The position numbers and the translations under genes were made by a program. A stretch of DNA of 64,000 nucleotides. It comes from Dictyostelium discoideum (Eukaryota). The stretch covers positions 4,640,001 through 4,704,000 of the forward strand of contig CM000153.2 in NCBI GenBank assembly GCA_000004695.1, written 5' to 3'. Shown piece after piece: positions 16,261 to 43,768 of this stretch; the stretch's first letter is position 1; each line of letters opens with the position of its first letter. Below the pieces are notes generated by a model, which saw only the letters and a program-made list of their open reading frames with translations, had not been told where the DNA came from and did no database searches.

Positions 16261-17115
16261 TCATTAATTAAAAATTGACAATAAATAATTAATATTAAAA
16301 ATAAAAATAAAAATAAAAATAAAAACAAAAAATAAAAATAAAAATAAAAATAAAAATTATATTTGAAAAAAAAAATAAATAAATAAATTAAATAAATTAA
16401 ATAAATAAAAATAAAAAAAAAAAAAAAAAAAAAAAAGTGTATGTGTGTGTCTATTTTAAAAAATTATTTTTATCACTCTGTAAAAATATTTTTAATTCAT
16501 TCCAAAACTCATAATTAACAAAAGATAAAAAATTTAGATATGTATATAAAAATAAAATTTATTATTTAAATAATAGATTTCAATTTATTGGCAAAATAAC
16601 CTCTTTTTTTTTTATATTAAATAAAAAAAAAAAAAAAAAAAAGAGTATTTATATTAGGTTGTGATGGTAATAAATCAAAAAAACTTATTACTACATAAAA
16701 ATTATTAAATTTTATTTTTTAATTGAAAAATTGTTCTTTTTTTTTTTTTTTTTTATTTTTTATTTTTTTTTTTTTTTCCCCAATACTTAATTTAATCTAA
16801 ATTGGTGAATTTAAAAATAAAAATAAAAATTAAAAAAAATTAAAAAAAACACCTCACTCATTTTTTTGGGTGTGGAAATGAGATTTAATCTTATTATTTT
16901 TAATTTTTTTTTATTTAAAAAAATTAAATTTGGGAAAATAAAAAAAAATTAAGCACATTAATATTTTTTTTTTTTTTTTTTTTTATTCTTATTTTATTTT
17001 TATCCTTTTTGAACACTAAATTATTATTTTTTTTATATATATCAAACACACACTTCACACACAAACACAAACACCATTTTAAAACATAACATTTCTTTTT
17101 TCCTCTCACCACGCA

Positions 17116-17529
17116 ATGTTTTCTCCCAGGGATAGTTTCAATTTCTTTGATGACCCAACTTTTGGTATTAACCTCCAACCTCTCACAACGACGTATGTTG
17201 AAGTGGAAGATTTGGAAAATGATATCAAAAGATTATCAAGTCTGTTCTATGAAGAGACTGTTCATCTTAGTTATAAATTACCCAATTCTTTAAAGAAGTC
17301 TCGAAATTTCTTACAACCATACCTTAATATTAAACCTATTAAACATTCAAGACAAAACTATACACAATTAACAAACTATATAGACCAATCAAAAGACTTA
17401 GTTCAAGAGTGTAAGTCTTGTTTTAGTGATAATGTTGGTGTCAATGATATATTAAGGGATATACTGCGTGATATGGATAGGTTAAAGGTACATTATTGTT
17501 CAGATGGTGGTATATTTTCATCTTTATAG
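17116..17529 (+). CDS. Small uncharacterised protein (137 aa), copy 1 of a five-member tandem family. Its GC content is atypically high for the locus.
   Basis: Intact ORF MFSPRDSFNFFDDPTFGINLQPLTTTYVEVEDLENDIKR...KVHYCSDGGIFSSL. It is preceded by a CA-rich element (17044-17075) and is 90-95% identical to copy 2. Confidence 0.6.
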   Translation: MFSPRDSFNFFDDPTFGINLQPLTTTYVEVEDLENDIKRLSSLFYEETVHLSYKLPNSLKKSRNFLQPYLNIKPIKHSRQNYTQLTNYIDQSKDLVQECKSCFSDNVGVNDILRDILRDMDRLKVHYCSDGGIFSSL

Positions 17530-17850
17530 TTAATACTATAAAAATGGATTTATGCAATCATATTTTAATTTTTACTATTTATATATTCTTTATTTCATTC
17601 TTTTTTTTTTTTCTCTTTCTCTTTTATTTTTGTTTTTTTTCTTTTGTGTAACAAAAATACAAACTTCCAAAACTAAAAAAAAGTAAAAAAACAAAATCAA
17701 ACAAAATCAAACAAAATCAAACAAATAATTTAAAAATCAAATACAAAATCAAAAACAAAGGTAACAGAAAAAATGAAAAAAAAAACAAAATGAAATAAAA
17801 AATATATAAATAATAAAAAAAAAGTTTATCAAACAATACAAATTAAAAAT

Positions 17851-17914
17851 ATCCTTCCTTCTAATCAACTTTCAATGTATGAATATACATTGAAGGTTGA
17901 TTAGAAGGGAGGAT
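17851..17914. repeat. Near-perfect inverted repeat (hairpin) with about 30-bp arms and a 4-nt loop. It is followed by a short second palindrome (aatgtatcggatacatt) and a conserved 200-bp block C.
   Basis: Left arm atccttccttctaatcaactttcaatgtat against reverse complement of the right arm atcctcccttctaatcaaccttcaatgtat gives 28/30 matches. The same element recurs at 20296-20360, 27512-27575, and (degenerate) at 22620 and 25378-25458. Confidence 0.8.
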
Positions 17915-18459
17915 ATTCAAATCAAATCCCAATGTATCGGATACATTCCTTAGTTAGAATGAAGGGTTTTCTGTTTAGTTTAAAAGAAAAGTGAAATTCT
18001 GTTGCAATATCGATATCTGGTGTCTTAGAGTCAAACTATTTTCTCAATGGCATTCCAATCAATTTCCAAAATACATTCCAGTTTTTCAATCAAAGAAATT
18101 CTATAAATAAACCATTTTAATCCTCTTAAAAAATATTGTTTTGATTTTTTTTTTTTTTTTTTTGATTTTTTTTTTTTTTTAGTTAAATTACTCCTATTAT
18201 TTAAAAAATATTTTTTAACTTCCTTTTATCATTTTTAAAATAATAATTATACCAAAATGTATTTTTCATTTTATAATAGTGAAAATAAAAAATCATTATT
18301 GATGGAATATATTTTAAAAAATGAAAGGACAAAACTAATCCATTTTTTTTTTTTTTTTTTAAGAATATTGGTTTTTTTTTTTTTTTTTTAATCTTATTCA
18401 TAATAAATAGAATAAAATAATAAATACTAATATCTTTTTTTTTTAATTATATCTTTATA

Positions 18460-18718
18460 TTTTTTAAAATTAAATGGTGAACTAATAACATTGCAAATCA
18501 AGGCAAATGCAAATAATGTATATGAAAGTGGTGATCAATGTGGTAATTCAACATTTACTTCATTTAATTACAATAATAATAATGTTAAAACATTTATTAC
18601 AATGTCACCTCATCCTGGTAATGTAGTTGAATTTTATAAATATTATACAAATTTTAAAATTAATGGAATTAATTTCAACAATTTCACAAAATGTAAATTA
18701 AATAAAAAAATTAAATAA
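18460..18718 (+). pseudogene. Decayed 5' fragment of the beta-helix surface-protein gene (array unit 1).
   Basis: Similar to 28530-28930 (GELITLQINANGNNVY.SGDQCGNSTFT ... KTFIT.SP..GNVVE.YK...FKINGINFNNF) with an internal deletion. Confidence 0.6.
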
Positions 18719-18740
18719 AATAATAATAATAATATAATAA

Positions 18741-18827
18741 AATAAAATTAAATAAAATAAAATAAAATAAAATAAAATAAAATAAAATAAAATAAAATAA
18801 AATAAAATAAAATAAAATAAAATAATA
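18741..18827. repeat. (AAATAA)n microsatellite.
   Basis: Visible hexanucleotide run after the unit-1 surface-gene fragment. Confidence 0.9.
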
Positions 18828-19531
18828 CAATTGTAACTTCTTTTGATAATTTTATAGCATAAATTAAAATTAAAATAATTCTTGAAAAAAAAAAAATTAA
18901 ATAAATATATAAATAAATAAATAAAAATAAAATTGAAAATAAAAAGTGTATCTGTGTCTATTATAAAAATTAATTTTATCAATCTGTAAAAATATTTTTA
19001 ATCAATTTTAAAACTCATAATTAACAACAGATAAAAAATTAAGATATGCATATATATAAAAAAAAAATTATTATTATTATTAAATAAAAGATAACAAATT
19101 AACCTTCTATTTATTACTATATAAAATTTTTTATTTTACATGAATAATTGGTTTTTTTTTTTTTTTTTTTTATTTTTTTTTTTTTTTGTTTAATATCAAG
19201 ATTGGTGAATTTAAAAATAAAAATAAAAATTTAAAAAAAATTAAAAAAAAACACCTCACTCATTTTTTTGGGTATGGAAATGAGATTTAATCTTATTATT
19301 TTTTTTAATTATTTTTTATTTTTATTTAAAAAAATTAAATTTGGGAAAAAAAAAAAAATTAAGCACCACATTAAGGGTTTTTTTTTTTTTTTTTTTTTAA
19401 TTCTTTTTTTATTTTTATCCTTTTTGAACACTAAATTAAATTAATTATTATTTTTATATATATATATATATATATCCAACACACACACCATTTTTAAAAA
19501 ATAACATTTCTTTTTTCCTCTCCACCACGCA

Positions 19532-19945
19532 ATGTTTTCTCCCAGGGATAGTTTCAATTTCTTTGATGACCCAACTTTTGGTATTAACCTCCAACCTCTC
19601 ACAACGACGTATGTTGAAGTGGAAGATTTGGAAAATGATATCAAAAGATTATCAAGTCTGTTCTATGAAGAGACTGTTCATCTTAGTTATAAATTACCCA
19701 ATTCTTTAAAGAAGTCTCGAAATTTCTTACAACCATACCTTAATATTAAACCTATTAAACATTCAAGACAAAACTATACACAATTAACAAACTCTATTGA
19801 CTATGCAAAAGTCTTTGTTCAAGAGTGTACGGCATGTTTTGATGATAATGTTGGTGTCAATAATTTATTAAGGGATATACTGCGTGGTATGGATAGTTTA
19901 AAGGTGCATTATTGTTCAGATGGTGGTATATTTTCATCTTTATAG
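19532..19945 (+). CDS. Small uncharacterised protein (137 aa), family copy 2.
   Basis: Intact paralogous ORF. The upstream (TA)n and CA-rich element (19476-19490) are conserved. Confidence 0.6.
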   Translation: MFSPRDSFNFFDDPTFGINLQPLTTTYVEVEDLENDIKRLSSLFYEETVHLSYKLPNSLKKSRNFLQPYLNIKPIKHSRQNYTQLTNSIDYAKVFVQECTACFDDNVGVNNLLRDILRGMDSLKVHYCSDGGIFSSL

Positions 19946-20592
19946 TTAACACTATAAAAATGGATTTATGCAATCATATTTTAATTTTTACTATTTATAT
20001 ATTCTTTATTTCATTCTTTTTTTTTTTTTCTCTCTTTTATTTTTGTTTTTTTTTGTTTTTTTTTCTTTTGTATATAACAAAAATACAAACTTCCAAAACT
20101 AAAAAAAAGTAAAAAAACAAAATCAAACAAAATCAAACAAAATCAAACAAAATCAAACAAAAAATTTAAAAATCAAATACAAAATCAAAAACAAAGGTAA
20201 CAGAAAAATTGAAAAAAAAAAAAAAAAAAAAAAAAAAATGAAATAAAAATATATAAATAATAAAAAAAAGTTTATCAAACAAAACAAATTAAAAATATCC
20301 TTCCTTCTAATCAACTTTCAATGTATGAATATACATTGAAGGTTGATTAGAAGGGAGGATATTCAAATCAAATCCCAATGTATCGGATACATTCCTTAGT
20401 TAGAATGAAGGGTTTTCTGTTTAGTTTAAAAGAAAAGTGAAATTCTGTTGCAATATCGATATCTGGTGTCTTAGAGTCAAACTATTTTCTCAATGGCATT
20501 CCAATCAATTTCCAAAATGCATTCTAGTTTTTCAATCAAAGAAATTCTATAAATAAACCATTTTAATCCTCTTAAAAAATATTGTTTTGATT

Positions 20593-20635
<43 letters not shown>

Positions 20636-20924
20636 TTCAATTACTCCTATTATTAAAAAAATATTTTTTAACTTCCTTTTATCAATTTTAAAATAATAAT
20701 TATACCAAAATGCATTTTTCATTTTATATAAGTGAAAATAAATAATCATTATTCATGGATTATATTTTAAAAAATGAAAGGACAAAACTAATCCATTTTT
20801 TTTTTTATTTTTTAAAATTTTGTTTTTTTTTTTTTCATCTTATTCATAATAAATAGAATAAAATAATAAATACTAATATCTTTTTTTTTTTTTTTTTTTA
20901 ATTTTAGCTTTAAATTTTTTAAAA

Positions 20925-21382
20925 TTAAATGGTGAACTAATAACATTGCAAATCAATGCAAATGGAAATAATGTATATGAAAGTGGTGATCAATGTGGTA
21001 ATTCAACATTTACTTATAATTCAATAAATGCAATTTCTTATTTTGAAACAATTAAAGTATATAATCAAACCTCAAAAATTTAAATTTATCCACATTGAAA
21101 TTACTTTAGATGACTCTTTATAAAATTGGTAATCCATTAATACTTTTTCAAAATAAAATTGAAATTTCGCCTTTAAATCAAAAATCTAAAAATGTAATCA
21201 TTGATGATTCTTCAATTAATAACAATAATAATAATAATAATACTAAAACATTTATTACAATGTCACCTCCTCCTGGTAATGTAGTTGAATCTTATAAATC
21301 ATATACAATTTTTAAAATTAATGGAATTAATTTCAACAATTTAACATTTACAATTGTAACTTTTGATAATTTTATAGCATAA
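20925..21382 (+). pseudogene. Decayed 5' fragment of the beta-helix surface-protein gene (array unit 2).
   Basis: Collinear with 28520-29000. There are in-frame TAA stops (for example ATT TAA ATT at about 21080). Confidence 0.6.
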
Positions 21383-22032
21383 ATTAAAATAAAAATAATA
21401 TTTGAAAAAAAAAATTAAATAAATATATAAATAAATAAATAAAAATAAAAATAAAAATAAAAAAAAAAGTGTATGTGTGTCTATTTTAAAAAATTATTTT
21501 TATCGCTCTATAAAAATATTTTTAATTCATTCCAACTCATAATTAACAACAGATAAAAAATTAAGATATGTATATATATAAAAAAAAAAATTATTATTTT
21601 TATTTAAATAATAGATAACAAATTAACCTCATTTTTATTACTATATAACAGTAAAAAATAATATTAACACTTTTTTTTTAAAAAAAAAAAAAAAAAAAAA
21701 ATAATAAAAAAAAAAACTGATCACTTAATTTTAGGTGAAAAAAAAAAATAAAAAATAAAAAAAAATAAAAAAAAAATATATATTTTGTTAAGGAATTTAC
21801 AAACAACAAAAAAAATTAATTTTTTTTTTTTTTTCTATTTTTTTTTTTATTTTTTTTATTTTTTTTATATTCACCTAAAATTTTTTTTTTTTTCTCATTT
21901 TTTTTTTTTTTTTTTTTTTTTTATAACACTATAATTAAATTAATAATAATAAAATAATAAAATAATTTAATTGTTTTTTTATATATCAAAAACACATATA
22001 TAATATTTTAAAACTCAAACTTTTCTACTACA

Positions 22033-22341
22033 ATGTCTTCTCAAGAAGGTGACCTTCCCCCTCTCAGCGATTACCCAGATGCAACTAAAGTGGATGAATT
22101 ATGGTGTAAAATCATTGCCCAATCAACTACTCCCCTTGAAATAACCAATTTATTGAACCAGTTTTCCCATTTCTTAAAGCCATGCCAAGTTAACTCACTT
22201 TCAAAGAACCCACAAACGAAAAAATTACTAGAACATTTAGAAAAGTGTAGGGGCCCATGTAATAATGATAATACCAACAATTTATTAAGCGATATGATAC
22301 AGAATGTCCAAAATTTAATTATATTATTAATGATCCCATAA
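22033..22341 (+). CDS. Divergent small-protein family member (102 aa), copy 3.
   Basis: It occupies the same slot in unit 3. It has weak but collinear similarity (CRGPCNNDNTNNLLSDMIQNVQNL versus CKSCFSDNVGVNDILRDILRDMDRL) and the same downstream flank (tatagttaactactataaa...). Confidence 0.4.
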   Translation: MSSQEGDLPPLSDYPDATKVDELWCKIIAQSTTPLEITNLLNQFSHFLKPCQVNSLSKNPQTKKLLEHLEKCRGPCNNDNTNNLLSDMIQNVQNLIILLMIP

Positions 22342-22949
22342 AGCAATAATAATTATATCATGTAATGGTATATTTTCAACTTTATAGTTAACTACTATAA
22401 ATATGGATTTATGCAATCACTATAGTTTAATTTTTATTATTTAAATTTTATTTATATAATATTTATTTCATTCTTTTTTCTTTGTTAACAAAAATACAAA
22501 CATCCCACACAATACAAAATCAAAAACAAAGATAAAAGAAAAACAAAAAAAATGAAATAAATAATATATAAATAATAAAAAATTAAATAATAAAAGTCAA
22601 ACAAATTAAAAATATGCTTTGATACATTCGTTTGTTACAAGGAGGGATTTTCTGTTAAATTTCGTTGCAATATCTGGTACCTTAGAGTCAAACTATTTTC
22701 TTGGTGTCATTCTAGTCAATTACCTAAATGTTTCCTGTTTCAATCAAAGAAATTCTCTAAATAAATTTAAAAACCTTACAAAAACTTTTTTTTTTTTTTT
22801 TTTTTTTTTATTTTATTTTATTTTTTTTTTTAATTTTAATTATCCATAATAATCAATCAAAACATTAAAAAAAAAAAAATAAAAAAAAATAAAATGATAA
22901 CATGTATATATATATTTTTTTAATTTTAACTTTTTATTTTTTAAAATTA

Positions 22950-23198
22950 AATGGTGAACTAATAACATTGCAAATCAATGCAAATGGAAATAATGTATAT
23001 AAAAGTGGTGATCAAAGTGGTAATTCAGCATTTAAATGTAATTCAATAAATGATGCAATTTCTTATTTTGAAACAATTAAAGTATATAATCAATCATTGA
23101 TGGCACCGATTAATAACAATAATAATACTATTAAAATATTTATAACAATATCACCTCTCCTCCTCTTGGTAATATGGTTGAATAAAAATAAAAAATAA
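22950..23198 (+). pseudogene. Decayed 5' fragment of the beta-helix surface-protein gene (array unit 3).
   Basis: ORF 22902..23198 retains the signal peptide and GELITLQINANGNNVYKSGDQSGNSAFKCNSINDAISYFETIKVYNQS. It then skips about 50 codons present in the full gene. Confidence 0.55.
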
Positions 23199-23745
23199 AA
23201 AGTGGTTGTGTATCAATCTTAAAATTTTATTTTATCACTCTGTAAAAATATTTTTAATTCATTCCAAAAATCATAATTAACCACAGATAAAAAAAATATA
23301 TTGTTTAAATAATAGATATTTTATTACCAATTAACCTCACTTATTTTGCTATATAAAAAGTGTTGATTTATATTATTACTTTAAAAAAAAAAAATAATAA
23401 CATTGGGATTTAATTTTATTTTTTACTCCAAAAAATTATCATTATTTTTTTTTTTTTTTTTTTTATAATATTAAATTAAAAAAAATAAATAAAATTAAAA
23501 AAACATGTTCTCTTATTTTTTTGGGTTAAAATGAAAATGAGATTTAATTTAATTATTTTTTTTTTCCACTCCCAAAATTTTTTAATTTTTTTTTATTTTT
23601 TTCATTTTTAAATTTTTTTTTTTTAGACACCATTTTTTTTTTTTTTCATTCCTTTTTTTATTTTCATCCATTTTGCACTATAATTATTATAATTATTTTT
23701 AAACACACACACTATTTTAAACATTTCTTTCCTTTCTTCCACGCA

Positions 23746-24138
23746 ATGTTTTCTACCTGGAATTTCTTTGATGACCCTCCTGGTATTAACCTCGAACCTC
23801 TCACAGCGACCTACGTCGAAGTGGAAGGGATAGAGAATGATATCAAGAGAGGATCGAGTCAATTCTATGAAGATACTGTTCATCTTTGTTTTAAATTACC
23901 CAGGTTTTTAAAGAAATCTCGCAATTTCTTACAGCCGTACCTTGATATTAAACATTCGAGACTAAACTATACACAATTAACAAACTCTATAGACTATTCA
24001 AAAGTCTTTGTTGAAGAGTGTATAGCATGTTTTGGTGATAATGTTGGGGTCAATAATTTATTAAAGAATATTCTGCGTGATATGGATAGGCTAAAGGTAC
24101 ATTATTGTTCAGATGGTGGTATATTTTCATCTTTATAG
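23746..24138 (+). CDS. Small uncharacterised protein (130 aa), family copy 4.
   Basis: Paralogous ORF (MFSTWNFFDDPPGINLEPLTATYVEVEGIENDIKR...KVHYCSDGGIFSSL) with a short N-terminal deletion relative to copies 1 and 2. Confidence 0.55.
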   Translation: MFSTWNFFDDPPGINLEPLTATYVEVEGIENDIKRGSSQFYEDTVHLCFKLPRFLKKSRNFLQPYLDIKHSRLNYTQLTNSIDYSKVFVEECIACFGDNVGVNNLLKNILRDMDRLKVHYCSDGGIFSSL

Positions 24139-24228
24139 TTAAAACTATAAAAATGGGTTTATACAATCATAGTTTAATTTTTATTCTTTATTATTACTAT
24201 TTCATTCTCTTTTTTTTACTTTCACCTT

Positions 24229-24285
<57 letters not shown>

Positions 24286-24419
24286 TTACAAAATACAAAC
24301 ATCACACACAACAAAAAATAACAAAAAACCAAAACAAAATCAAACAAAATCAAACAAAATCAAATATGAAGGGTAAAAGAAAAAATGAAAAAAAAAAAAA
24401 ATAATCAAAAAAGTCAAAC

Positions 24420-25560
24420 TATACAAATTAATAATATCCTTCCTTCTAACCAACCTTCATTGATATATCCGACGATAATACACCGAATGTTCAACAGAAG
24501 GAAGGAATTCAAATCTACCTCAATGTATCCTACGAGGATACATTGCGAGCTCCCAAGGATATTCAAATCTATCTCATTAGAATGAAGGATATTCAAATCT
24601 ACCCCAATGTATCCTATGAGGATACATTGCGAGCCCCCAAGGATATTCAAATCTATCTTCAATGAATCCGATGGATAATATTGGACACTCATTAGAATGA
24701 AGGATATTCAAATCAACCCCAATGTATCCTACGAGGATACATTGCGAGCCCCAAGGATATTCAAATCTATCTTCAAAGTATCCAATTGATAATACCTTGA
24801 AAACTAATTAGAATGAAGGATATTCGCCCCAATCTTCAATGTATCCGATAGGATACATTGAACCCTCTCAAGAAGGATATTCAATCTATCCTCAATGTAT
24901 CCAATTGATAATACCTTGAACACTCATTAGAATGAGGGATATTCAAATAAACCTTCGATGTATCCGATAGGATACATTGAACCCTCACCGAAATGATATT
25001 CAAATCTATCTTCAATATATCCAATGGATAATATATTGAACACTCAGTAGAAGGAAGGATATTCAAATCAACCTTCAATGTATCTGATACATTGAACCCT
25101 TATCAGAAGGATATTCAGTCTATATTCAATGTATCCGATGGATAATACATTGAACACTCAATAGAAGGAAGGATATTCATATCAACCGGTCAGATACATT
25201 GAACACTCATTAGAATGAAGGATATTCAAATCAATCTCCAATGTATGGGATAAATTCATCGGTTAGAAGGAAGGATATTTAATCAACCTTCAATGTATTC
25301 GATCGGATACATTTAACGCTCACTAGAAAGAAGGATATTCAAATCAATATCCAATGCATCCCATCGGCATACAGAACGCTCACTAGAGAAGGATATTCAA
25401 ATCAACCTCCAATGTATTGGATACATTCGTTGATTTGGGTCCTTCTCTAGTGAGCGTTCAATGTATGCCGATGGGATGCACTGAACGCTGATTAGAAGGA
25501 AGGATATTCAAATCAATGCCAATGTATGGAATACATTCATTGGTTAGAAGGAAGGATTTA
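24420..25560. repeat. 1.1-kb satellite-like tandem array of 55-60-bp units (an AB dimer of about 112 bp). Each unit carries the short palindrome CAATGTATCCGAT(A)GGATACATTG and a GGATATTCAAATC motif.
   Basis: By eye there are about 20 successive units. The array ends in a larger inverted repeat (cgctcactagagaagga ... tccttctctagtgagcg, 25378-25458). It sits where other units have the single hairpin. Confidence 0.8.
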
Positions 25561-25954
25561 AAAACAGAAAAAACTAAAAAAAGAAAAGTGAAATTCCATG
25601 TGCCTTGGAGTCAAACAATTTTCCCATTGAAATTCCAGTCAATTACCAAAATGCATTGCTGTTTCAATAAAGAAATTCTCTAAATAAATTTCAATACCAT
25701 TTTAATCCTCTTAATCAAAACAATAGTTTTTTTTTTTTTTTTAAATTAGTCCTTTTAGATTTTATTAAATAAAAAATATTTTTTTAACATCCATTTAATA
25801 ATAATAATTAAACCAAACGTATTTTTCATCATTAATAATAAAAAATGAAAAGACTATTTTTTTTTTTTATTATTATTCATATTAAATAGTATAAAATAAT
25901 AAATAATAATATCTTTTTTTTTTTAATTTTTAACTTTTTATTTTTTATAATTAA

Positions 25955-26450
25955 ATGGTGAACTAATAACATTGCAAATCAATGCAAATGGAAATAATAT
26001 GAAAGTGGTGACCAATGTGGTTATTCAACATTTACATGTAATTCAATAATTAATGCAATTTCTTATTTTAAAAAAATTAAAGTATATAATCAATCCTCAG
26101 AAATTTAAATTTATCAACCATTGAAATTACTTTTAGATGATTGTATATATAAAATTGGTAATCAATAATATTTTTTCAATATAATATTGAAATTTTGCCT
26201 TTAAATCAAAAATCTAAAAATGTAATCATTAATGATTCTTCAATTAATAACAATAATAATAGTATTAAAACATTTATTATAATATCACCTCCTGGTAATG
26301 TGGTTGAATCTTATACAATTTTTTAAACTAGTGGAAATAAATTCAACAATTTCACATTTACAATTGTAACTTCTTTAAATAATTTTTAACATAATTACAT
26401 AATCCATCCAATAGTATTGGTGGGGTTGTATTTGAAATATTTATTTTTTA
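25955..26450 (+). pseudogene. Decayed 5' fragment of the beta-helix surface-protein gene (array unit 4), fused to about 60 bp derived from the antisense strand of the Cys-rich gene at 15553-16260.
   Basis: 26382-26450 (aacataattacataatccatccaatagtattggtggggttgtatttgaaatattta) matches 15870-15935. The upstream part matches 28530-28960 with indels. Confidence 0.55.
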
Positions 26451-26464
26451 CATGTATAAAATTG

Positions 26465-26523
<59 letters not shown>

Positions 26524-26772
26524 CTAGTATGAATTTAAAATAAAAATTAAAAGCAATTAAATTAAAAAATCACTTCTCTCATTTTTTTAAGTTTTGTGTA
26601 AAATATCTCGAGATTTAATCTAATTATTTATTTTTTTTTTTTTTTTTTTTAATTTTTAAATTTTTTTTTTTTTTTTTTTCACCTTTAAATTTGATTTTTT
26701 TTTTTCATTCTCTTTGAATAAGACCTTACTGTTTTAATTTTAATATTTCTTTTTTTCCCATCCACCACGGCA

Positions 26773-27159
26773 ATGTTTTCTCCCGGGGATAGTTTCAATT
26801 TCTATGATGACCCAACTCTTGGTATTAACCTCCAACCTCTCACAACGACGTATGTTGAAGTGGAAGATATAGAGAATGATATCAAGAGAGTATCAAGTAT
26901 GTTCTATGAGGACACTGTTCTTCTTAGTTATAAATTACCCGAGCATTTAAAGAAATCACGTAATTTCTTACAGCCATACCTTGATATTAAACATTCAAAA
27001 TTAAACTATACACAACTAACAAACTCTATTGACTTTGCAAAAGTCTTTGTTAAAGAAGGTATAGCTTGTTTTGGTGATAATGTTGGTATCAATAATTTGT
27101 TAGAAGATATATTGCGTGATATGGATAGGTTAAAGGTATATTATATTGAAATAGTGTAG
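26773..27159 (+). CDS. Small uncharacterised protein (128 aa), family copy 5. The C-terminus is altered and it may be decaying.
   Basis: Paralogous ORF ending ...RLKVYYIEIV instead of KVHYCSDGGIFSSL. Confidence 0.45.
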   Translation: MFSPGDSFNFYDDPTLGINLQPLTTTYVEVEDIENDIKRVSSMFYEDTVLLSYKLPEHLKKSRNFLQPYLDIKHSKLNYTQLTNSIDFAKVFVKEGIACFGDNVGINNLLEDILRDMDRLKVYYIEIV

Positions 27160-27431
27160 CATATTTTCATTTTTATAGTTAACATTATAAAAATGGATTT
27201 ATGCAACAATATTTTAATTTTTATTATTATTTTAATTTTTATATTATTTATTTCATTCTTTTTTTTTCTTCTTTTTTTTCTTTATTTTTTTCTTTTTTTT
27301 GTTTGTACTTCCCACACAACAACAAAAAAAAAAAAAACAAAAACAAAAAAATAACAAAAGATAACCAAACAAAATCAAACAAAATCAAACAAAATCAAAT
27401 AAAATCAAAAACAAAGGTAATAGAAAAAATG

Positions 27432-27468
<37 letters not shown>

Positions 27469-28006
27469 AAATATATAATATATAAATAATAAAAAAAGTT
27501 TATCAAACAATATTAAAAATATACTTCCTTCTAATCAAACTTCAATGTTTGGATACATTGAAGGTTGATCAGAAGGAAGAATATTCAAATCCCAATGTAT
27601 CGGATACATTCCTTGGTTAGAATGAAGGGTTTTCTGTTTATTTTAAAGAAAAGCGAAATTCTGTGGCAATATCGACATCAGGTGCCTTAGAGTCAAACTA
27701 TTTTTTCAATAACATTCCAATCAATTTTCAAAATGCATTCCAGTTTTTCAATCAAGGAAATCCCCTAAAATAAATTTAAATACCATTTTAATACATAAAA
27801 ACTGTAACTTTTTTTTTTTTTTTTTTTTTTTTTAGTTCAATTACTCCTATTTTATTAAAAAATATTTTTTAACTTTCTTTTACCATACCAAATGTATTTT
27901 TCATTTTAAATGTAATGAAAATCATTATTTGAAGAATATATTTTAAAAAATGAAAGGACAAAACTTACCCAGATTTTTTTTTTTTGGATTTTCAAGAAAA
28001 AAAATA

Positions 28007-28475: not shown

Positions 28476-29993
28476 ATGATAAAATATATTTTTCCATTTT
28501 TTTTAATTTTAACTTTTTATTTTTTAAAATTAAATGGTGAACTAATAACATTGCAAATCAATGCAAATGGAAACAATGTATATAAAAGTGGTGATCAGTG
28601 TGGTAACTCAACATTTACATGTAATTCAATAAATGATGCAATTTCTTATTTTGAAACAATTAAAGTATACAATTAATCATCAGAAATTCAAATTTATCAA
28701 CCATTGAAATTACTTTTAGATGATGGTATTTATAAAATTGAAAATCAATTAATACTTTTTGAATATAATATTGAAATTTCACCTTTAAATCTAAACTCTA
28801 AAAATGTAACCATCGATGGTACCTCAATTTATAACAATAATAATAATAATATTAAAACATTTATTACAATATCACCTCCTACAGGTAATATAGTTGAATC
28901 CTATAAATCCCATAGCATTTTTAAAATTAATGGAATTAATTTCAATAATTTCACATTTACAATAATTTACATTTATAAAACTTATTTAAATGTAGTAGGA
29001 TCATTTGAAAATTGTAATTTTAATAATTTTAAAAGTGAATTTCCAATGTTTTACCTAATTAATAATAATAATAATAACATAATAAGTAATTTATATTATA
29101 ATATAAATTCATCATTTGCTTTAACGAATTGTTCAATGATCAGTAATTCAAATATAGGTTATAATTCATCTATAATTAATAGTAAAAAATTCAGTGTACT
29201 TATTTATCGATCAAAATTCCAATCAATTAATGAATGTAATAATTTTGGTTACTTTTATGATAGTTCTCGATTAACAATTTATAATAGTTCAATAAATAAT
29301 AATAATTGTAAAATAATTTTCAATATAAATAAAATTAATAAGTTAGATGTATTCAATACAAAATTTGAAAATAATAATGGAACAATATTCAATATTAAAT
29401 TTAATTCAAATGAAGGTTTAATTTCAATTAAAAATAGTAGCTTTATCAATAATTATGGTGGTAGTATTATTAATTTAGAATCAAATAATAATATTCCTTT
29501 TGAAAATTTAAAAAAAAATCCACAACTATTTAGAGACTCTACATTTTTTAATAATTCATTCAATGGAAATGGAAGTATAATTAATTCAATTGGTGCTTAT
29601 TTTATTGTTTCTGGTGAATTTGAAAATAATAAAGCATTAAATCACCAAGGTGATTTATTTTATTTACAAGATAGTTATTGTTTAATAGAAGATTCAAAAA
29701 TAAATCAAGTTAATAATTTACCAAGTGGTAAAGGTTCAATAATTTATTTACAAAAATCAGAATTAGAAATATCAAGTGGTAATTTCAAACTAGATGGTTC
29801 ACTTGTTTGTAATTCTTCAAAAATAAAACTTTTACGAAATACAATTGTTTTTAAACCTACTATTGACTGTCAAAATTGTACCTTTAATAACAATAATTAT
29901 TGTGAACTTAATTTTGGAATAAAAAATAAAATATCAATTCTTTTAAATTTAATAATATTATTACTATTATTATTATTATCACTATCAATATAA
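28476..29993 (+). CDS. Secreted/GPI-anchored beta-helix-like surface protein with polymorphic-membrane-protein-type repeats (FxxN and GG[AS]I-like). It is full length but carries an in-frame TAA at 28674-28676, so it is either a pseudogene or N-terminally truncated.
   Basis: ORF 28476..28676 (signal peptide MIKYIFPFFLILTFYFLKLNG...) and ORF 28704..29993 (TTG-initiated in the track) are in the same frame and separated only by the TAA. Repeats include FINNYGGSIIN and FNGNGSIINSIGAYF. The C-terminal tail is hydrophobic ([18 protein letters not shown]). Confidence 0.5.
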
Positions 29994-30085: not shown

Positions 30086-30910
30086 TCAAAGTGATATTAA
30101 TAAAATTAATAATGATACAATTGTTGAAATAATATTAATATTTAAAAAAGAACTAGATGAATCAAAGTCATTTGATGATGATGATGATGATAATGAAGAT
30201 AATTGAGAATCAAAAGAAAATGAAGGAGTTGTATAATTTACAGTTTGATTGATTGGATTTGAATCAGTGAGGAAATTAAACATTTTTAAGGATTTGAAAT
30301 TATCACAATTTGTACTATTTGAAGGATATGTTTGTTTTAAAATACATGATTGCGGTTTACAATCACTTGTTAAACATTCATAAACATTAATTGTCATACC
30401 ATCTTTACCAATACATTCTCTCCTTTGATATCTAATTGTTGTACTATTATTACTATTATCATTTGAAGACGTTTCTAATTTTAATGGATCATTACCAAAA
30501 TTCATTTTAATACATGTATTATTTCTATAAGAATTTATGAAATAATTTTCACAATTAAAATAATTTACTTCATTACAATAGGTATCTATATTTCTTGGAT
30601 TAAACTCTGAATCGTTTATGATATATTGATATGATGTACCATCAGTGTTTAAATAACATTGTTTGGTTTGTACAAATTCTGTTATATCTCGTTCGATTGA
30701 ACATTGATCTTGATTATTAACTTTTGTGATTGCTAATTTACCACCTGCTCCTTTTTGAAAGTATGAATATCTTGAACAATTTGTACTACCAATTGTAAAT
30801 AATAATTCTCCTTTACATAATATATTACTATATTTAATTATATGTACTTCAAATCCAATTATTTTTTTAATTAAAAATATAATAAATATAATTTTTATTA
30901 TTAATTTCAT
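30086..30910 (-). CDS. Secreted Cys-rich protein with Ser-rich stalk and C-terminal hydrophobic (GPI-like) tail. It is a paralog of 15553-16260.
   Basis: A 274-aa ORF with a signal peptide and Cys pattern shared with the 15553-16260 product. Confidence 0.6.
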   Translation of the reverse strand: MKLIIKIIFIIFLIKKIIGFEVHIIKYSNILCKGELLFTIGSTNCSRYSYFQKGAGGKLAITKVNNQDQCSIERDITEFVQTKQCYLNTDGTSYQYIINDSEFNPRNIDTYCNEVNYFNCENYFINSYRNNTCIKMNFGNDPLKLETSSNDNSNNSTTIRYQRRECIGKDGMTINVYECLTSDCKPQSCILKQTYPSNSTNCDNFKSLKMFNFLTDSNPINQTVNYTTPSFSFDSQLSSLSSSSSSNDFDSSSSFLNINIISTIVSLLILLISL

Positions 30911-37267: not shown

Positions 37268-39169
37268 TTAATCATTACCTAATTTTTTTAATTTATTTAA
37301 ACCAACTTTAATATTTGTTTGATTTCTTTTATATAATATAAAACCAACAATTATGAAAATTGTAGAACCAACAACACCAACAACTACACCTATAGTAATT
37401 TTTACCCATTCCCTTGATTTTTCATTATTACATCCTTGTTCATTTGTTGATGAAGTATGATCAATAAAAATACTAAAAGATGGATCCATTTGAATTAAAT
37501 TTTCATAATGTGGTATATTAATTGCTATTGATAAATTTGTTGAATTCGTAAATAAATATGAATTTGATAATGTTGTTATTGTACCATCAACAATACCTCT
37601 TTTTATAAAATTACAATTTAATGATCTATCATTTAATTTAATTTTAAAATTATCTAAATTATTATATATATTGATTGAATTAGTTGGACAATCATTTTCA
37701 ATTTGACTATCAACTTGACTTTGAATTATTAATTTCAAAGTATTTAAATCACTTTCAAATGAATAACTTGAAATTTCTATATTAAATTTTAAAGAATATG
37801 GTTCAATTTTAATTTCTTGGTTTGCAAATTTAATTTTATTATTAACATTTGAATCAATATCTTTATACCAATTAAATAATACTTTAATTTCTGTAGATTT
37901 ATTTAATGATTTTGAAATTGATGTTGAATTAATAGTTGTATTATAAAAATAGGTTTCAATTTGTTTGGTATCATTAATGGTTTGATTATTATATGACCAT
38001 AATATTGATTCTAAATTATATTGTTTTATAATTTTATCTTGAAAATCAAGTTCATTTAATGATTTAATTATAATTAATGATTTAAATTTTGAATTTTCAA
38101 ATAATTCTGTATTTGGACTTTTTAAATTAAATGATGTAGTTGAATTTTTGGATGGTTCTAAATTTGGAAAAGTGGGAGTTATTATTATACAATTCGTATT
38201 ATTATTAGTAAGAGTGAATGGACAATCACAACTATATGTACCAATTTTATTATTACAAATAAAATTTATTGGACAAGTATAATTATTAAAATCGCCATCT
38301 GAAATTAAACATTCATCAATATCAATACAATCACCTTTAGCATTTAATTTAAAACCTGGACTACAATAACAATCTGCATTGACTCTATCACATGTTCTAT
38401 TACCAACACATGGATTAATTGGTTGATCACAAAAATTAATTCTACAAAATTCATCAATTTGATATGCTTTATCACATAAACATTTACTATTATTTACACA
38501 TTTTCCATAATTACAATTTGGACATTTAAATTCTGCATACCAAAAAGTTGAATAATATGAATTTATTGCACCAAATTGTTTACAATAACCATTTCCATTT
38601 GTTTCATTTAAAACCAATAATGATGAATTAAAATTTGGTATGAAATATGTGATATTATTTGAACAACTTTGAATAATTAAATCTTTTTCAATTTTATAAT
38701 TAACTGTTTTAATAAAGGAATCACTTGAATTTAAACAATTTTTTCCAAAATTATAAATATTTGTAGTATAAAAATTTGAGTAACAATTTGTAACTGGTAA
38801 ATTACCATTTTCAATTGTATAATAATTTGTTCTACCTATTTCTGCGTATCTAATTTTAATTAATTAATATTTAGAGAAAAAAAAAAAAAAAAAAAATGAA
38901 AAAAAAAAAAAAAAAAAATTATCTTACATTGGAGGTGAAGTAGGTGTTATAATAGGACATTTAGGTTGAATTGTAAAGACATAGCTATTTGAATAACCAA
39001 TAGATTTACACATGACTCCTTGAATTTGTTCATTTTTTATATTAGAACAACCATAATTTGTATAATTTGAAACTGATGAGCATTGTGAAAAAACAAAATT
39101 ATTTTTGTTTAAGTGAACTATAAATAATAATATTAATATTATTTTGATATTACCAAATATTTTAACCAT
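37268..39169 (-). CDS. Type I membrane protein with EGF-like/calcium-binding EGF domains. Two exons: 38928..39169 and 37268..38849.
   Basis: Exon 1 has a signal peptide (MVKIFGNIKIILILLFIVHL..) and ends ..TSPP at the GTAAGA donor. The acceptor is aattag and phase is 2. Exon 2 has multiple Cys-rich EGF modules including cbEGF DIDECL...C.C, a long N-glycosylation-rich stalk, a TM segment (ITIGVVVGVVGSTIFIIVGFILY) and a short cytoplasmic tail. Confidence 0.65.
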
Positions 39170-40134: not shown

Positions 40135-41317
40135 ATGCATTTTCCAATTCTTAATGGATCAGCTTTATTTACATCTTCTTTTTTTGAATCTAAAGTCATT
40201 GGAGCTCTTAGAATTTTTAATAATACTAGTTTAAAAGTGTGGAAAAATTATCATGAAAGTAAGTATTTTTATATTAATTTAAAAATTTTAATTTTAATAT
40301 TTATTAATATTTTGATATATTAGTTTTAGAAGAAAAAAATAATAAATTAGTAAATCATACACAACATAAAATAAACAACATTGCCACAGAAGAAACAATT
40401 GATGATACAACTTCAAGTAATCAAAGTGAGCCAAGTAAGCCAAGCAAGCCAAGTAAGCCAAGTGAGCCAAGTGAACCAAGTGAGCCAAGTGAACCTGTTA
40501 ATGCAACTACAACAATAGAAGGTAAAAAAAGAAAATACACAAAAAAAAAATAAAAAAAAAATAGTAGTTTATTAAATAATTTATAAATTAATTAAGACTT
40601 CTATTGTTTTTTAATTTTATTATTATTTTTTCATACTAATATTAGTATATTTGTTTTTAAAAAGGATTAAATGATAAAGATTTTAAATCGTTAATTGGGA
40701 TTACTAAGATTCAATTTCAAGATTTATTAAATAAAATTTCACAAAAAACAAAAAAAAAGAGATAACAGGGGGAGATCAAGTATTTATAATGTAAAAGGTA
40801 AACTTATTATAACTATGATTTGGCTTCGTCATTATCTCAAACCGATTATTTTTAAAATTTTATTTAAAGTGAGAATGTTATAAGAAATTATACAGATCAA
40901 ATAGTTGAAATTTTATATTTATTATCTTTTGATAGTTTTAATTATCACACAATTAATAGGATTAATCAAAAAGCAGTTTTTATTAATGAATTAAATGAGC
41001 AATGTATTGTTACATCCATTGTGGATAGATCAGAGCAAAGATCAGTAGTTGCATTGGATAAAATAGCTAAAATTAACAACTTCAGTGCTAAAAAAGGATA
41101 TCCTACATTAACCAAATTCGTTTTTTGTAGCCCTGATGGTAAAATACAATATTTATCGAAAAGTAGAAATGGATCAAGGAATGACCAATCCATGATGTAT
41201 GAAGTTAGTGAATTTATTAATAAATTCGATGACTCTTGTGAACATATAATGGGCGATAAAGGCTTTCAAGGATCCGATAAATTATATTCTAAATTTTTAG
41301 TAATTTCGAGAAAAACC

Positions 41318-41369
<52 letters not shown>

Positions 41370-41659
41370 TAATAATAATAATAATAATAATAAAAATAAT
41401 AATGATGGTGATATAAATGGAGAATGTTTTGAACCAGAATATTATATAAGCGATGAAAAAGAATCAGAAGCAAGGTTTAAATCGATTAGAATAATAATTG
41501 AAAATGTTTTTGCTCATTAAAAAATATTCAATTACCTGTCTCACTTTTAGATTTAAGAATAAGATTGAATCAACAACTTTATTGGACTATCATCATAAAA
41601 TTTGGTGTGTTGTTGCATTTTTGGTTAACTTGTATGTTGAAATTAGAAAGAAAGAATAA
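40135..41659 (+). mobile_element. Degenerate Harbinger/PIF-superfamily DDE transposase gene (DDE_Tnp_4-like). Upstream exons are 40135..40256 and 40324..40499. The main exon from 40667 has an HTH region, three frameshifts, an internal poly-Asn insertion, and a D..D..E core.
   Basis: Spliced in phase as ...KNYHE|ILEEKNNKLVNH...SEPSKPSKPSKPSEPSEP...TTIEG|GLNDKDFKSLIGITKIQFQDLLNKISQKTKKKR. After a +1 shift in an A9 run comes RDNRGRSSIYNVKGKLIITMIWLRHYLKPIIFKILFK (GRPR/WLR.Y Harbinger motifs). After another shift comes SENVIRNYTDQIVEIL...QCIVTSIVDRSEQ...KKGYPTLTKFVFCSPDGKIQYL...HIMGDKGFQGS... (41021-41416 ORF in the track). Then (N)17, then ESEARFKSIRIIIENVFAH|LKKYSITCLTFRFKNKIESTT...IWCVVAFLVNLYVEI (a -1 shift at GCTCATTAAAAAAT). 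Confidence 0.7.
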
Positions 41660-42915: not shown

Positions 42916-43768
42916 CCATATTAATAGTGTAATCAGAAACAACAACAACAACAAAACAACAACAAAACAAAATCAACTACAACTACAACTACACTGGCAA
43001 TGCAAGCAAGCATGGACCCAATTAAAAACTCCACAAAATAAACAAACACACTACGAACACCTCCCAAAATTAAAAAAAATATACGAGGATATGATGACAA
43101 CTCAATCTCCAGAACACAACAAATTCATACCAACTCCTGGCCAAAAAGAAATAATGACCAAAATTAATAGCAAACACCTTCCATTTAAAGAAATCAAAAA
43201 AATAATAAACATGAAAGGTAGAGATCTATTATGGAGATACACACTGAAAGCATTACCAAAAATATACAACATGCCATGCCAACAGTGTGGGGAAGATGAG
43301 ACTTCAGAACATATATTCTTCAACTGCAAAGCCCACATCAAAAACACACAAGAAATATTCAACTACACCCTAACTAAGTGTGGACACACCACTCACACCT
43401 GGAATGTGAAGATTTTAAACCATCTACAAATCGCACTAGTAGCCAATTTAATAGCTATTATATTCGAAAGAATCTGGCACAAAAGAAATAAACTCATTCA
43501 CGATGAAAAAGAAATAATAATTCACAGACAACAAGTCATACGTGAACTGATTAAAACACAAAGAGCTGCATGGGACAGGACACAAGCGGTTATAAACAAA
43601 ACATTAAGAATCAAATCAAAGCAACGGCCAGAAGAACAAAATAAATTAGACTCCTTAATTTCGGTAAAGCTATTCCAATTTAGCAGACAAGGGAACTCCC
43701 CTTTTTCCCCAAAAAAAATTTCCGAAACATTTCAAAAAAAAAAAAAATTCCCCCGGGCTTTTTTTTAA

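Follow-up and report, generated by a model that had tools for sequence, protein, structure and literature searches.

What is a run of small, compositionally unusual genes doing in AT-rich Dictyostelium discoideum DNA, and where did it come from? The question is raised by a 64,000-nucleotide (nt) stretch of contig CM000153.2 (assembly GCA_000004695.1, positions 4,640,001 to 4,704,000, forward strand), here called the window, which has a GC content of 21% and in which five short open reading frames (ORFs) lie in tandem between positions 17116 and 27159. An initial annotation had presented these ORFs as a five-member family of domain-less proteins, placed them under the G-box binding factor (GBF) in post-aggregative or prespore development, and raised the possibility of a horizontally acquired or element-borne gene. 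Here, we find that the family is not foreign, that its compositional oddity is real, and that GBF drive is not shown. The array probably represents an orphan protein-coding gene that was tandemly amplified in D. discoideum, that is induced in early starvation, and that would be controlled post-transcriptionally through a stem-loop at its 3′ end.

An orphan protein family confined to one locus in three species

Four of the five ORFs, all on the plus strand, encode proteins of 128-137 amino acids (aa) with 72-91% pairwise identity: W1 (17116-17529, 137 aa) and its recent duplicate W2 (19532-19945, 137 aa), both of type 1, W4 (23746-24138, 130 aa, type 2), and W5 (26773-27159, 128 aa, type 3), which has a variant C-terminus. 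The fifth, c3 (22033-22341, plus strand), is a 102-aa ORF in a family slot, with homologous flanks and a homologous 3′ hairpin around an ORF body without detectable kinship. All five coordinates in the initial annotation were exact, and every peptide and DNA string it quoted is present in the window; its five-member family, however, holds for W1, W2, W4, and W5 and fails at the protein level for the ORF at 22033. Its description of the proteins as lacking a recognisable domain was borne out, as Pfam returned no match above noise for W1, W2, W4, or W5.

The family is a real protein under weak purifying selection. All 12 family ORFs compared across three species are intact, and every indel is in frame. 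Between species, the ratio of non-synonymous to synonymous differences (pN/pS) was 0.38-0.57, with bootstrap upper limits of 0.54-0.77, and the Jukes-Cantor corrected ratio (dN/dS) was ~0.35-0.4. The ratio ranged from 0.3 to 0.6 between paralogue types and reached ~1 for the youngest duplicates. Synonymous divergence was about three times faster in the family than in the flanking genes, with a pS of 0.46-0.53 against D. citrinum versus third-position differences of ~0.16.

The taxonomic range of the family is narrow. A search of 5.8 billion proteins returned family matches from D. discoideum only, while a profile hidden Markov model (HMM) run against 1.84 billion representatives added a single protein each from D. 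citrinum and D. dimigraforme; one further match was rejected as a spurious repeat protein. A broader family profile found nothing beyond these three species, and no homologue from bacteria, viruses, transposons, or other eukaryotes was present among the 1.84 and 5.8 billion proteins. PHROGs yielded no family match above noise, nor did curated families and solved structures provide any significant sequence or fold match (Pfam, PHROGs, and PDB sequence searches all at the level of noise).

All family copies occupy a single syntenic slot in the five genomes compared, and no dispersed copies were found. D. citrinum has one copy, which occupies the same slot and is flanked by the orthologues of a 235-aa minus-strand gene and of a large downstream gene; in D. 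dimigraforme, a single copy lies between a 276-aa gene and the large gene. Two other D. discoideum assemblies, GCA_054859355.1 and GCA_054859385.1 (L001 and L002), contain three family copies each, from which paralogue types 1, 2, and 3 were defined, and the window contains a doubled type 1 (W1 and W2) together with types 2 and 3 and c3. These comparisons indicate that one gene in the ancestor shared by D. discoideum, D. citrinum, and D. dimigraforme became three and then four plus one through segmental tandem duplication. The array now consists of five tandem units, in each of which a promoter region is followed by the small ORF, the conserved 3′ box with its stem-loop, T-rich stretches and (CAAAAT)n tracts, at least one palindromic hairpin repeat, and finally a truncated 5′ portion of the large gene that comes next. 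The segment duplicated with all these parts measures 2.4-3 kb.

L001 and L002 differ from the window by ~2% in flanking coding sequences, by ~9-12% over whole syntenic blocks, and by 7-15% at synonymous sites of family orthologues, a divergence that seems large for one species. In D. dimigraforme (L004, 10001-13134), the large gene is inverted relative to the small gene, so that the two are tail-to-tail, a local rearrangement. We found no papers describing the genome of either D. citrinum or D. dimigraforme.

A conserved stem-loop at or near the stop codon

Each unit carries one copy of the 3′ box, which folds into a stem-loop, is found nowhere else in 146 kb, and is kept in all three species. 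In W1, the stem-loop (17504-17561, plus strand) has 23 bp and extends across the UAG stop (17527-17529) into the start of the 3′ untranslated region (UTR). The same hairpin recurs on the plus strand in W2 (19920-19977) and W4 (24113-24170), while the c3 unit has a copy 90-96% identical to that of W1 downstream of the c3 stop (22362-22420, plus strand). In W5 (27153-27210, plus strand), the outer stem has been rebuilt by compensatory changes, and the hairpin reaches ~31 bp when folded in context. The stop codon itself moves relative to the hairpin: types 1 and 2, like D. dimigraforme, have a UAG within the inner 5′ arm, the type 3 copies of L001 and L002 have a UAA in the loop, W5 has a UAG at the base of the 5′ arm, and D. 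citrinum has a UGA upstream of the hairpin. The hairpin is conserved though the C-terminal reading frame differs between types, and the "DGGIFSSL" tail quoted in the initial annotation is the 5′ arm of the hairpin in translation.

Several lines of evidence indicate that the structure is maintained. In an alignment of 13 hairpin sequences (12 distinct), 96.7% of cells are standard pairs, ~26 cells are G·U, and four pairs have changed on both sides in a compensatory manner. At 0.187, the covariation score exceeded that of 500 out of 500 shuffles (mean 0.117, standard deviation (sd) 0.016), and pairing fell to 30-49% when the partners were slid as a control. Identity to D. dimigraforme was 83% for the hairpin versus ~62% for the coding sequence (CDS). 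These alignments show a stem-loop that is better conserved than the coding sequence and is preserved through compensatory changes. For the hairpin of W1, the folding energy is -20 kcal/mol (z=-5.2), and in a 146-nt context the full hairpin was retained in W1, W5, and D. citrinum. A covariance model scored 68-96 bits on the plus strand versus 33-57 bits on the minus strand, and this excess, together with the G·U pairs, indicates a sense RNA.

We thus consider the stem-loop to be probably a post-transcriptional control element, and one that seems not to have been described before. No Rfam family matches it. Descriptions of cis-acting RNA structures in Dictyostelium mRNAs are, to our knowledge, very scarce. 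The inner stem contains a UAUAAA hexamer in its 3′ arm, followed ~15 nt on by a CA and then a U-rich tract, and a canonical AATAAA is located ~230 nt further downstream. The stem-loop could serve as a docking site for a double-stranded RNA (dsRNA)-binding factor, or it could alternatively occlude the UAUAAA hexamer; either mechanism would set mRNA stability, 3′-end choice, or translation.

The c3 unit separates this regulatory frame from its coding content. The unit is collinear with the others, with an upstream flank 68.5% identical over 584 nt and a 3′ box 82% identical, and the DNA similarity of the c3 ORF to the family is confined to 34 nt. As a family member at the protein level, c3 was rejected: BLASTP gave E=4.3, an HMM built from 11 family sequences scored 1.5 bits, which was not above 999 shuffles, and global alignment reached a marginal z=1.1-3.2 against shuffles. 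With its collinear promoter-side and 3′ flanks, c3 is a positional homologue only. No source for the body of its ORF (22033-22260) was found in the window or the compared loci, and a search for relatives among 5.8 billion proteins returned one self-match only. The c3 ORF is present in AX4, where its N-terminus forms part of model DDB_G0286789, and was not found in GCA_054859355.1 or GCA_054859385.1. Replacement of the ORF, or a de novo ORF between homologous flanks, is possible.

Early induction, gene models, and predicted protein

The three AX4 gene models covering the array, DDB_G0286585, DDB_G0286587, and DDB_G0286789, all appear in the Hr03_gradual and Hr04_gradual lists of the suspension_UP sheet of a published developmental data set (Rosengarten et al. 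2015, Additional file 7, PMC4403905). There, up-regulation was counted looking back up to 4 h at a false discovery rate (FDR) ≤0.01, and according to the discussion of that paper, cells in suspension received full-amplitude cAMP pulses from 2 h (PMC4403905). These published lists show the family to be transcribed and its members to be induced together at an early time, 3-4 h into starvation under cAMP pulses. The developmental co-induction anticipated by the initial annotation is thereby supported, and a lack of transcription at every stage, which it had also envisaged, is contradicted by the up-regulation at 3-4 h in suspension. We found no mention of the family DDB_G identifiers or of Q54LL4 in the main text of the literature.

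All three models are chimeras that draw on the large-gene fragments or the downstream hairpins. Intact, the large downstream gene (28476-29993) occurs only after the last unit; a 5′ fragment of less than full length carried along by the duplication lies at 20893-21382 (plus strand), and decaying copies lie at 18438-18720, 22902-23198, and 25915-26370. The fragments comprise the signal peptide and first exon region of this 429-504-aa gene and mark the duplication breakpoints within it. DDB_G0286585 (17116-18718) joins the W1 ORF to a large-gene fragment, DDB_G0286587 (19141-20350; Q54LL4) joins the W2 ORF to an "exon" that in fact corresponds to one arm of the hairpin downstream, and DDB_G0286789 (22033-27190) combines c3, a large-gene fragment, W4, and W5. 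Close to the 3′ end, a conserved AAG|GTA...TATAG suggested an intron, which was rejected because its length would be a mere 42 nt and its GT is missing in D. citrinum and D. dimigraforme. The AX4 models that employ such splices are chimeras. Five single-exon ORFs fit the cross-species conservation better than the three AX4 models.

The family protein has a mass of ~15-16 kDa and an acidic isoelectric point (pI 4.7-5.6), with no predicted signal peptide or transmembrane segment, and would thus be a soluble, acidic protein of ~15 kDa. An AlphaFold2 model from a 9-sequence alignment had a predicted local distance difference test (pLDDT) score of 68.6 and a predicted template modelling (pTM) score of 0.63. 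Residues 1-24 are predicted to be disordered and contain a conserved DDP...L.PLT motif, followed by long helices at 27-54, 82-102, and 107-129 (pLDDT 85-92); the most conserved peptide, KKSRNFLQPYLNIKH, forms the loop between helices 1 and 2. Given this model, the protein is most likely a non-enzymatic protein-protein interaction module of early starvation and aggregation.

As for the surroundings, the "PsA-like" neighbours of the initial annotation were not recovered, with no PsA-like domain detected by Pfam in neighbouring genes. On the minus strand, the gene at 30086-30910 shows a weak resemblance to CfaA/B/C (counting-factor-associated) that falls short of the Pfam threshold, and the gene at 37268-38617 encodes a clear ComC supersandwich/EGF protein; with such CfaA/B/C-like and ComC-type neighbours, the neighbourhood is rich in secreted developmental proteins.

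Composition and flanking elements of the repeat unit

The G+C content at third codon positions (GC3) of the family is 0.25-0.33; for 23 other window ORFs, it averages 0.127 (sd 0.066) and spans 0.05-0.34. The atypical composition noted at the outset is thus clear relative to the neighbours, but still falls within the local ORF range (maximum 0.34). The orthologues behave alike, at 0.35 in D. citrinum and 0.29 in D. dimigraforme versus 0.09-0.15 in their neighbours, so that family GC3 is 2-3 times that of neighbouring genes throughout. Since it is common to three species, the high GC3 is an old and stable inherited property of the gene rather than a signature of recent transfer or a foreign mark. 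Highly expressed Dictyostelium genes are expected to show a bias towards C-ending codons; in the family, G at third positions is raised as much as C, and the rare codons ACG, CTG, AGG, TCG, and CCG are in use, which rules out translational selection and ordinary translational codon bias as the explanation. The only local ORF with a similar GC3 (0.34) is a 225-aa ORF at 43091-43768 with a zinc-knuckle-like motif, CQQCGEDETSEHIFFNC. About 1.7 kb away from it, at 41021-41416, lies a fragment of a DDE_Tnp_4 (PIF/Harbinger-type) transposase (Pfam E=2e-12), and both are probably transposon remnants.

Upstream of the ORFs, a CA-rich run at 17043-17076 (plus strand) lies between a TATA-like TATATATA (17033-17041), which it follows immediately, and the W1 ATG, 40-75 nt before the ATG, with inherited copies at 19476-19490 and 23701-23712 upstream of W2 and W4. 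CA runs before each ORF, as initially described, were thus confirmed at W1, W2, and W4, but none was found upstream of 26773. The run is long in type 1 and short in type 2; type 3, W5 included, and D. dimigraforme lack it, and a short CA-containing stretch is all that remains in D. citrinum. The runs are copies of one ancestral run rather than independent events, and because of its position between the TATA-like element and the ATG, the run probably belongs to the 5′ UTR or initiator. A better G-box-like candidate is GGGTGTGG at 16868-16875, within TTTTTTTGGGTGTGG (16861-16875, plus strand) ~250 bp upstream of W1, which is kept in L001 and L002, is degenerate in units 2 and 4, and has a related GT-rich stretch in D. 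citrinum. The GT box GTGTATGTGTGTGTC, initially assigned to the repeat unit, occurs as a sole exact copy at 16437-16451 (plus strand), with variants found at 18946 as well as 21469; D. citrinum has kept the box. Its distance to the ORFs downstream is ~560-680 bp. The intergenic region that holds it is divergent and also serves the minus-strand 235-aa gene, to which the box is nearer than to the family ORF.

Downstream, a perfect 33-bp hairpin repeat is found at 17848-17917 (plus strand), ~290 nt 3′ of W1, with copies 3′ of W2 (20294-20363) and W5 (27518-27585) and an expanded array 3′ of W4 (24433-25560, plus strand) that includes a 126-nt near-perfect hairpin (25355-25480). The motif, GGATATTCAAATC...CAATGTAT, occurs in 16 copies confined to this region. 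The 33-bp hairpin folds at -53 kcal/mol and the 126-nt hairpin at -91 kcal/mol (z=-17). All three D. discoideum assemblies have the repeats, D. citrinum and D. dimigraforme lack them, and they therefore arrived later than the gene; they could be a miniature inverted-repeat transposable element (MITE) or a thug-like element. With stems of 23 bp for the stem-loop and at least 33 bp for the downstream hairpins, both exceed the minimum of ~21 bp for a microRNA (miRNA) precursor or Dicer substrate. Rfam gave miRNA-like matches to the downstream hairpins below the gathering threshold, and neither these hairpins nor the 3′ stem-loop matched the D. discoideum miRNAs in the supplement of Liao 2018 (PMC6161686); the hairpin repeats were accordingly rejected as known miRNAs.

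Discussion

Several observations weigh against the reading of an early-starvation protein gene with a 3′ control element. The hairpin was not the minimum-energy fold of its 146-nt context in D. dimigraforme and was only partial in c3. The sequences behind the covariation signal are related paralogues, only about four of the double changes count as independent events, and a single member served to derive the structure. That the mRNA includes the 3′ arm is a prediction. The expression lists were built on chimeric AX4 models, with reads that may map to several paralogues, and none of DDB_G0286585, DDB_G0286587, and DDB_G0286789 appears in the filter-development sheets (PMC4403905, Additional file 7). 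The protein function proposed here would follow from a medium-confidence model and a generic fold, and the high dN/dS (~0.35-0.55, and ~1 in the youngest duplicates) implies weak constraint on the protein.

We assign a low probability to each of three other explanations. A GBF-controlled post-aggregative or prespore family, with CA and GT boxes as GBF-bound CA-rich elements (CAE) and G-boxes, is unlikely. The CA runs upstream of W1, W2, and W4, the GGGTGTGG box at about -250 shared with L001 and L002 and echoed in D. citrinum, the conservation of the GT box at about -560 to -680 in D. citrinum, and the developmental co-induction of the family are all consistent with it. However, the CA run is not conserved across paralogue types or species, being missing from type 3 copies and D. 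dimigraforme and vestigial in D. citrinum, its position is probably that of a 5′ UTR or initiator, its occurrences are duplicates of a single ancestral sequence, and the GT box has the divergent minus-strand gene as its nearer neighbour. In addition, induction at 3-4 h of cAMP pulsing is early and the family models are not in the filter lists; this early timing is therefore evidence against a classic post-aggregative or prespore programme. Somewhat less probable still is that RNA is the selected product, with a promoter and 3′ stem-loop cassette possibly feeding the small-RNA machinery and the ORFs as tolerated passengers. This would be compatible with a stem-loop better conserved than the CDS, with the c3 unit, which keeps the promoter-side flank and a 90-96% identical hairpin around an unrelated ORF body, with a high dN/dS that approaches 1 in young duplicates, and with the sub-threshold Rfam matches. 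Yet 12 of 12 ORFs are intact in three species with in-frame indels and a pN/pS significantly <1, the peptide motif KKSRNFLQPYLNIKH is strongly conserved, the hairpins match no D. discoideum miRNA of the PMC6161686 supplement, and with 23 bp the stem is short for a Dicer substrate that sits within an mRNA.

We consider a horizontally acquired or transposon-derived (domesticated) gene to be highly improbable. Such an origin would explain the GC-rich, rare-codon make-up and the adjacent hairpin repeats, and it draws on a GC3 2-3 times that of the neighbours with G-ending rare codons rather than a C-ending bias, on the sole local ORF of like GC3 (43091-43768) lying ~1.7 kb from the DDE transposase fragment, and on the palindromic repeats directly downstream of the family ORFs in D. 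discoideum. Against it, no non-dictyostelid relative was found in 1.84 and 5.8 billion proteins and no PHROG matched, the hairpin repeats are not in D. citrinum or D. dimigraforme, and the gene is single-copy and syntenic in these sister species, without dispersed copies, so that transfer or a transposon origin is unsupported. Nor do the ORFs look like pieces of a longer transposon ORF, with no Pfam match of transposase, gag, or reverse transcriptase type and a profile search that returned orthologues only. A very old domestication might nevertheless underlie the gene.

Beyond the reading of a protein gene with a 3′ control element, a more speculative version, which we hold to be rather doubtful, is that the selected unit is a post-transcriptional "cassette", i.e., an early-development promoter and a 23-bp stem-loop at the stop, with coding sequences turning over inside. 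The stem-loop would possibly be read by dsRNA machinery such as RbdB/DrnB or another dsRNA-binding protein. If so, the c3 ORF would have been replaced, or born de novo, within a regulatory frame that stayed conserved, and the perfect hairpin repeats, which are specific to D. discoideum, would form another, lineage-specific layer at the RNA level.

For the protein gene with its 3′ stem-loop, the locus offers a compact natural experiment in gene-family birth, in which one ancestral copy became three and then four plus one, copy number varies among isolates, and one unit, c3, kept the regulatory frame while its ORF became unrecognisable. The stem-loop, supported by covariation across three species, provides a concrete and mutable element for early-development post-transcriptional control. 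From a practical standpoint, DDB_G0286585, DDB_G0286587, and DDB_G0286789 should be re-annotated as five simple single-exon genes.

The closest parallel within the genus is the hssA/2C/7E family, a lineage-restricted cluster of small developmental genes of Dictyostelium. Like hssA/2C/7E, the family described here consists of small, domain-less tandem ORFs that occur only in the D. discoideum group, are induced during development, and evolve fast. Unlike it, the present family has no sequence kin among other proteins, each of its copies has a conserved 3′ stem-loop, and its product is a predicted helical bundle without low-complexity tracts as opposed to a Gly/Ser/Cys-rich peptide. The predicted fold resembles generic up-and-down helical bundles, including designed 4-helix bundles, Rop, pectin methylesterase inhibitor, and talin rod domains.

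At the RNA level, the stem-loop recalls the histone mRNA stem-loop bound by SLBP, the constitutive decay element (CDE) of Roquin, and Staufen-binding stems: all are conserved stem-loops at or just after the stop codon, and the window hairpin, like them, is kept by compensatory substitutions and is strand-specific through G·U pairs. It does not have the 6-bp stem, 4-nt loop, and conserved sequence of a histone-type 3′ stem-loop. Unlike the histone (6 bp) or CDE stems, it has 23 bp with internal bulges, and unlike histone, CDE, and Staufen stems, it overlaps the last 8 codons in most copies, with a binding factor that is putative. Finally, as in the poly(A) hairpin of human immunodeficiency virus 1 (HIV-1), and by a purely structural analogy, a candidate poly(A) hexamer (UAUAAA) lies inside the stem.

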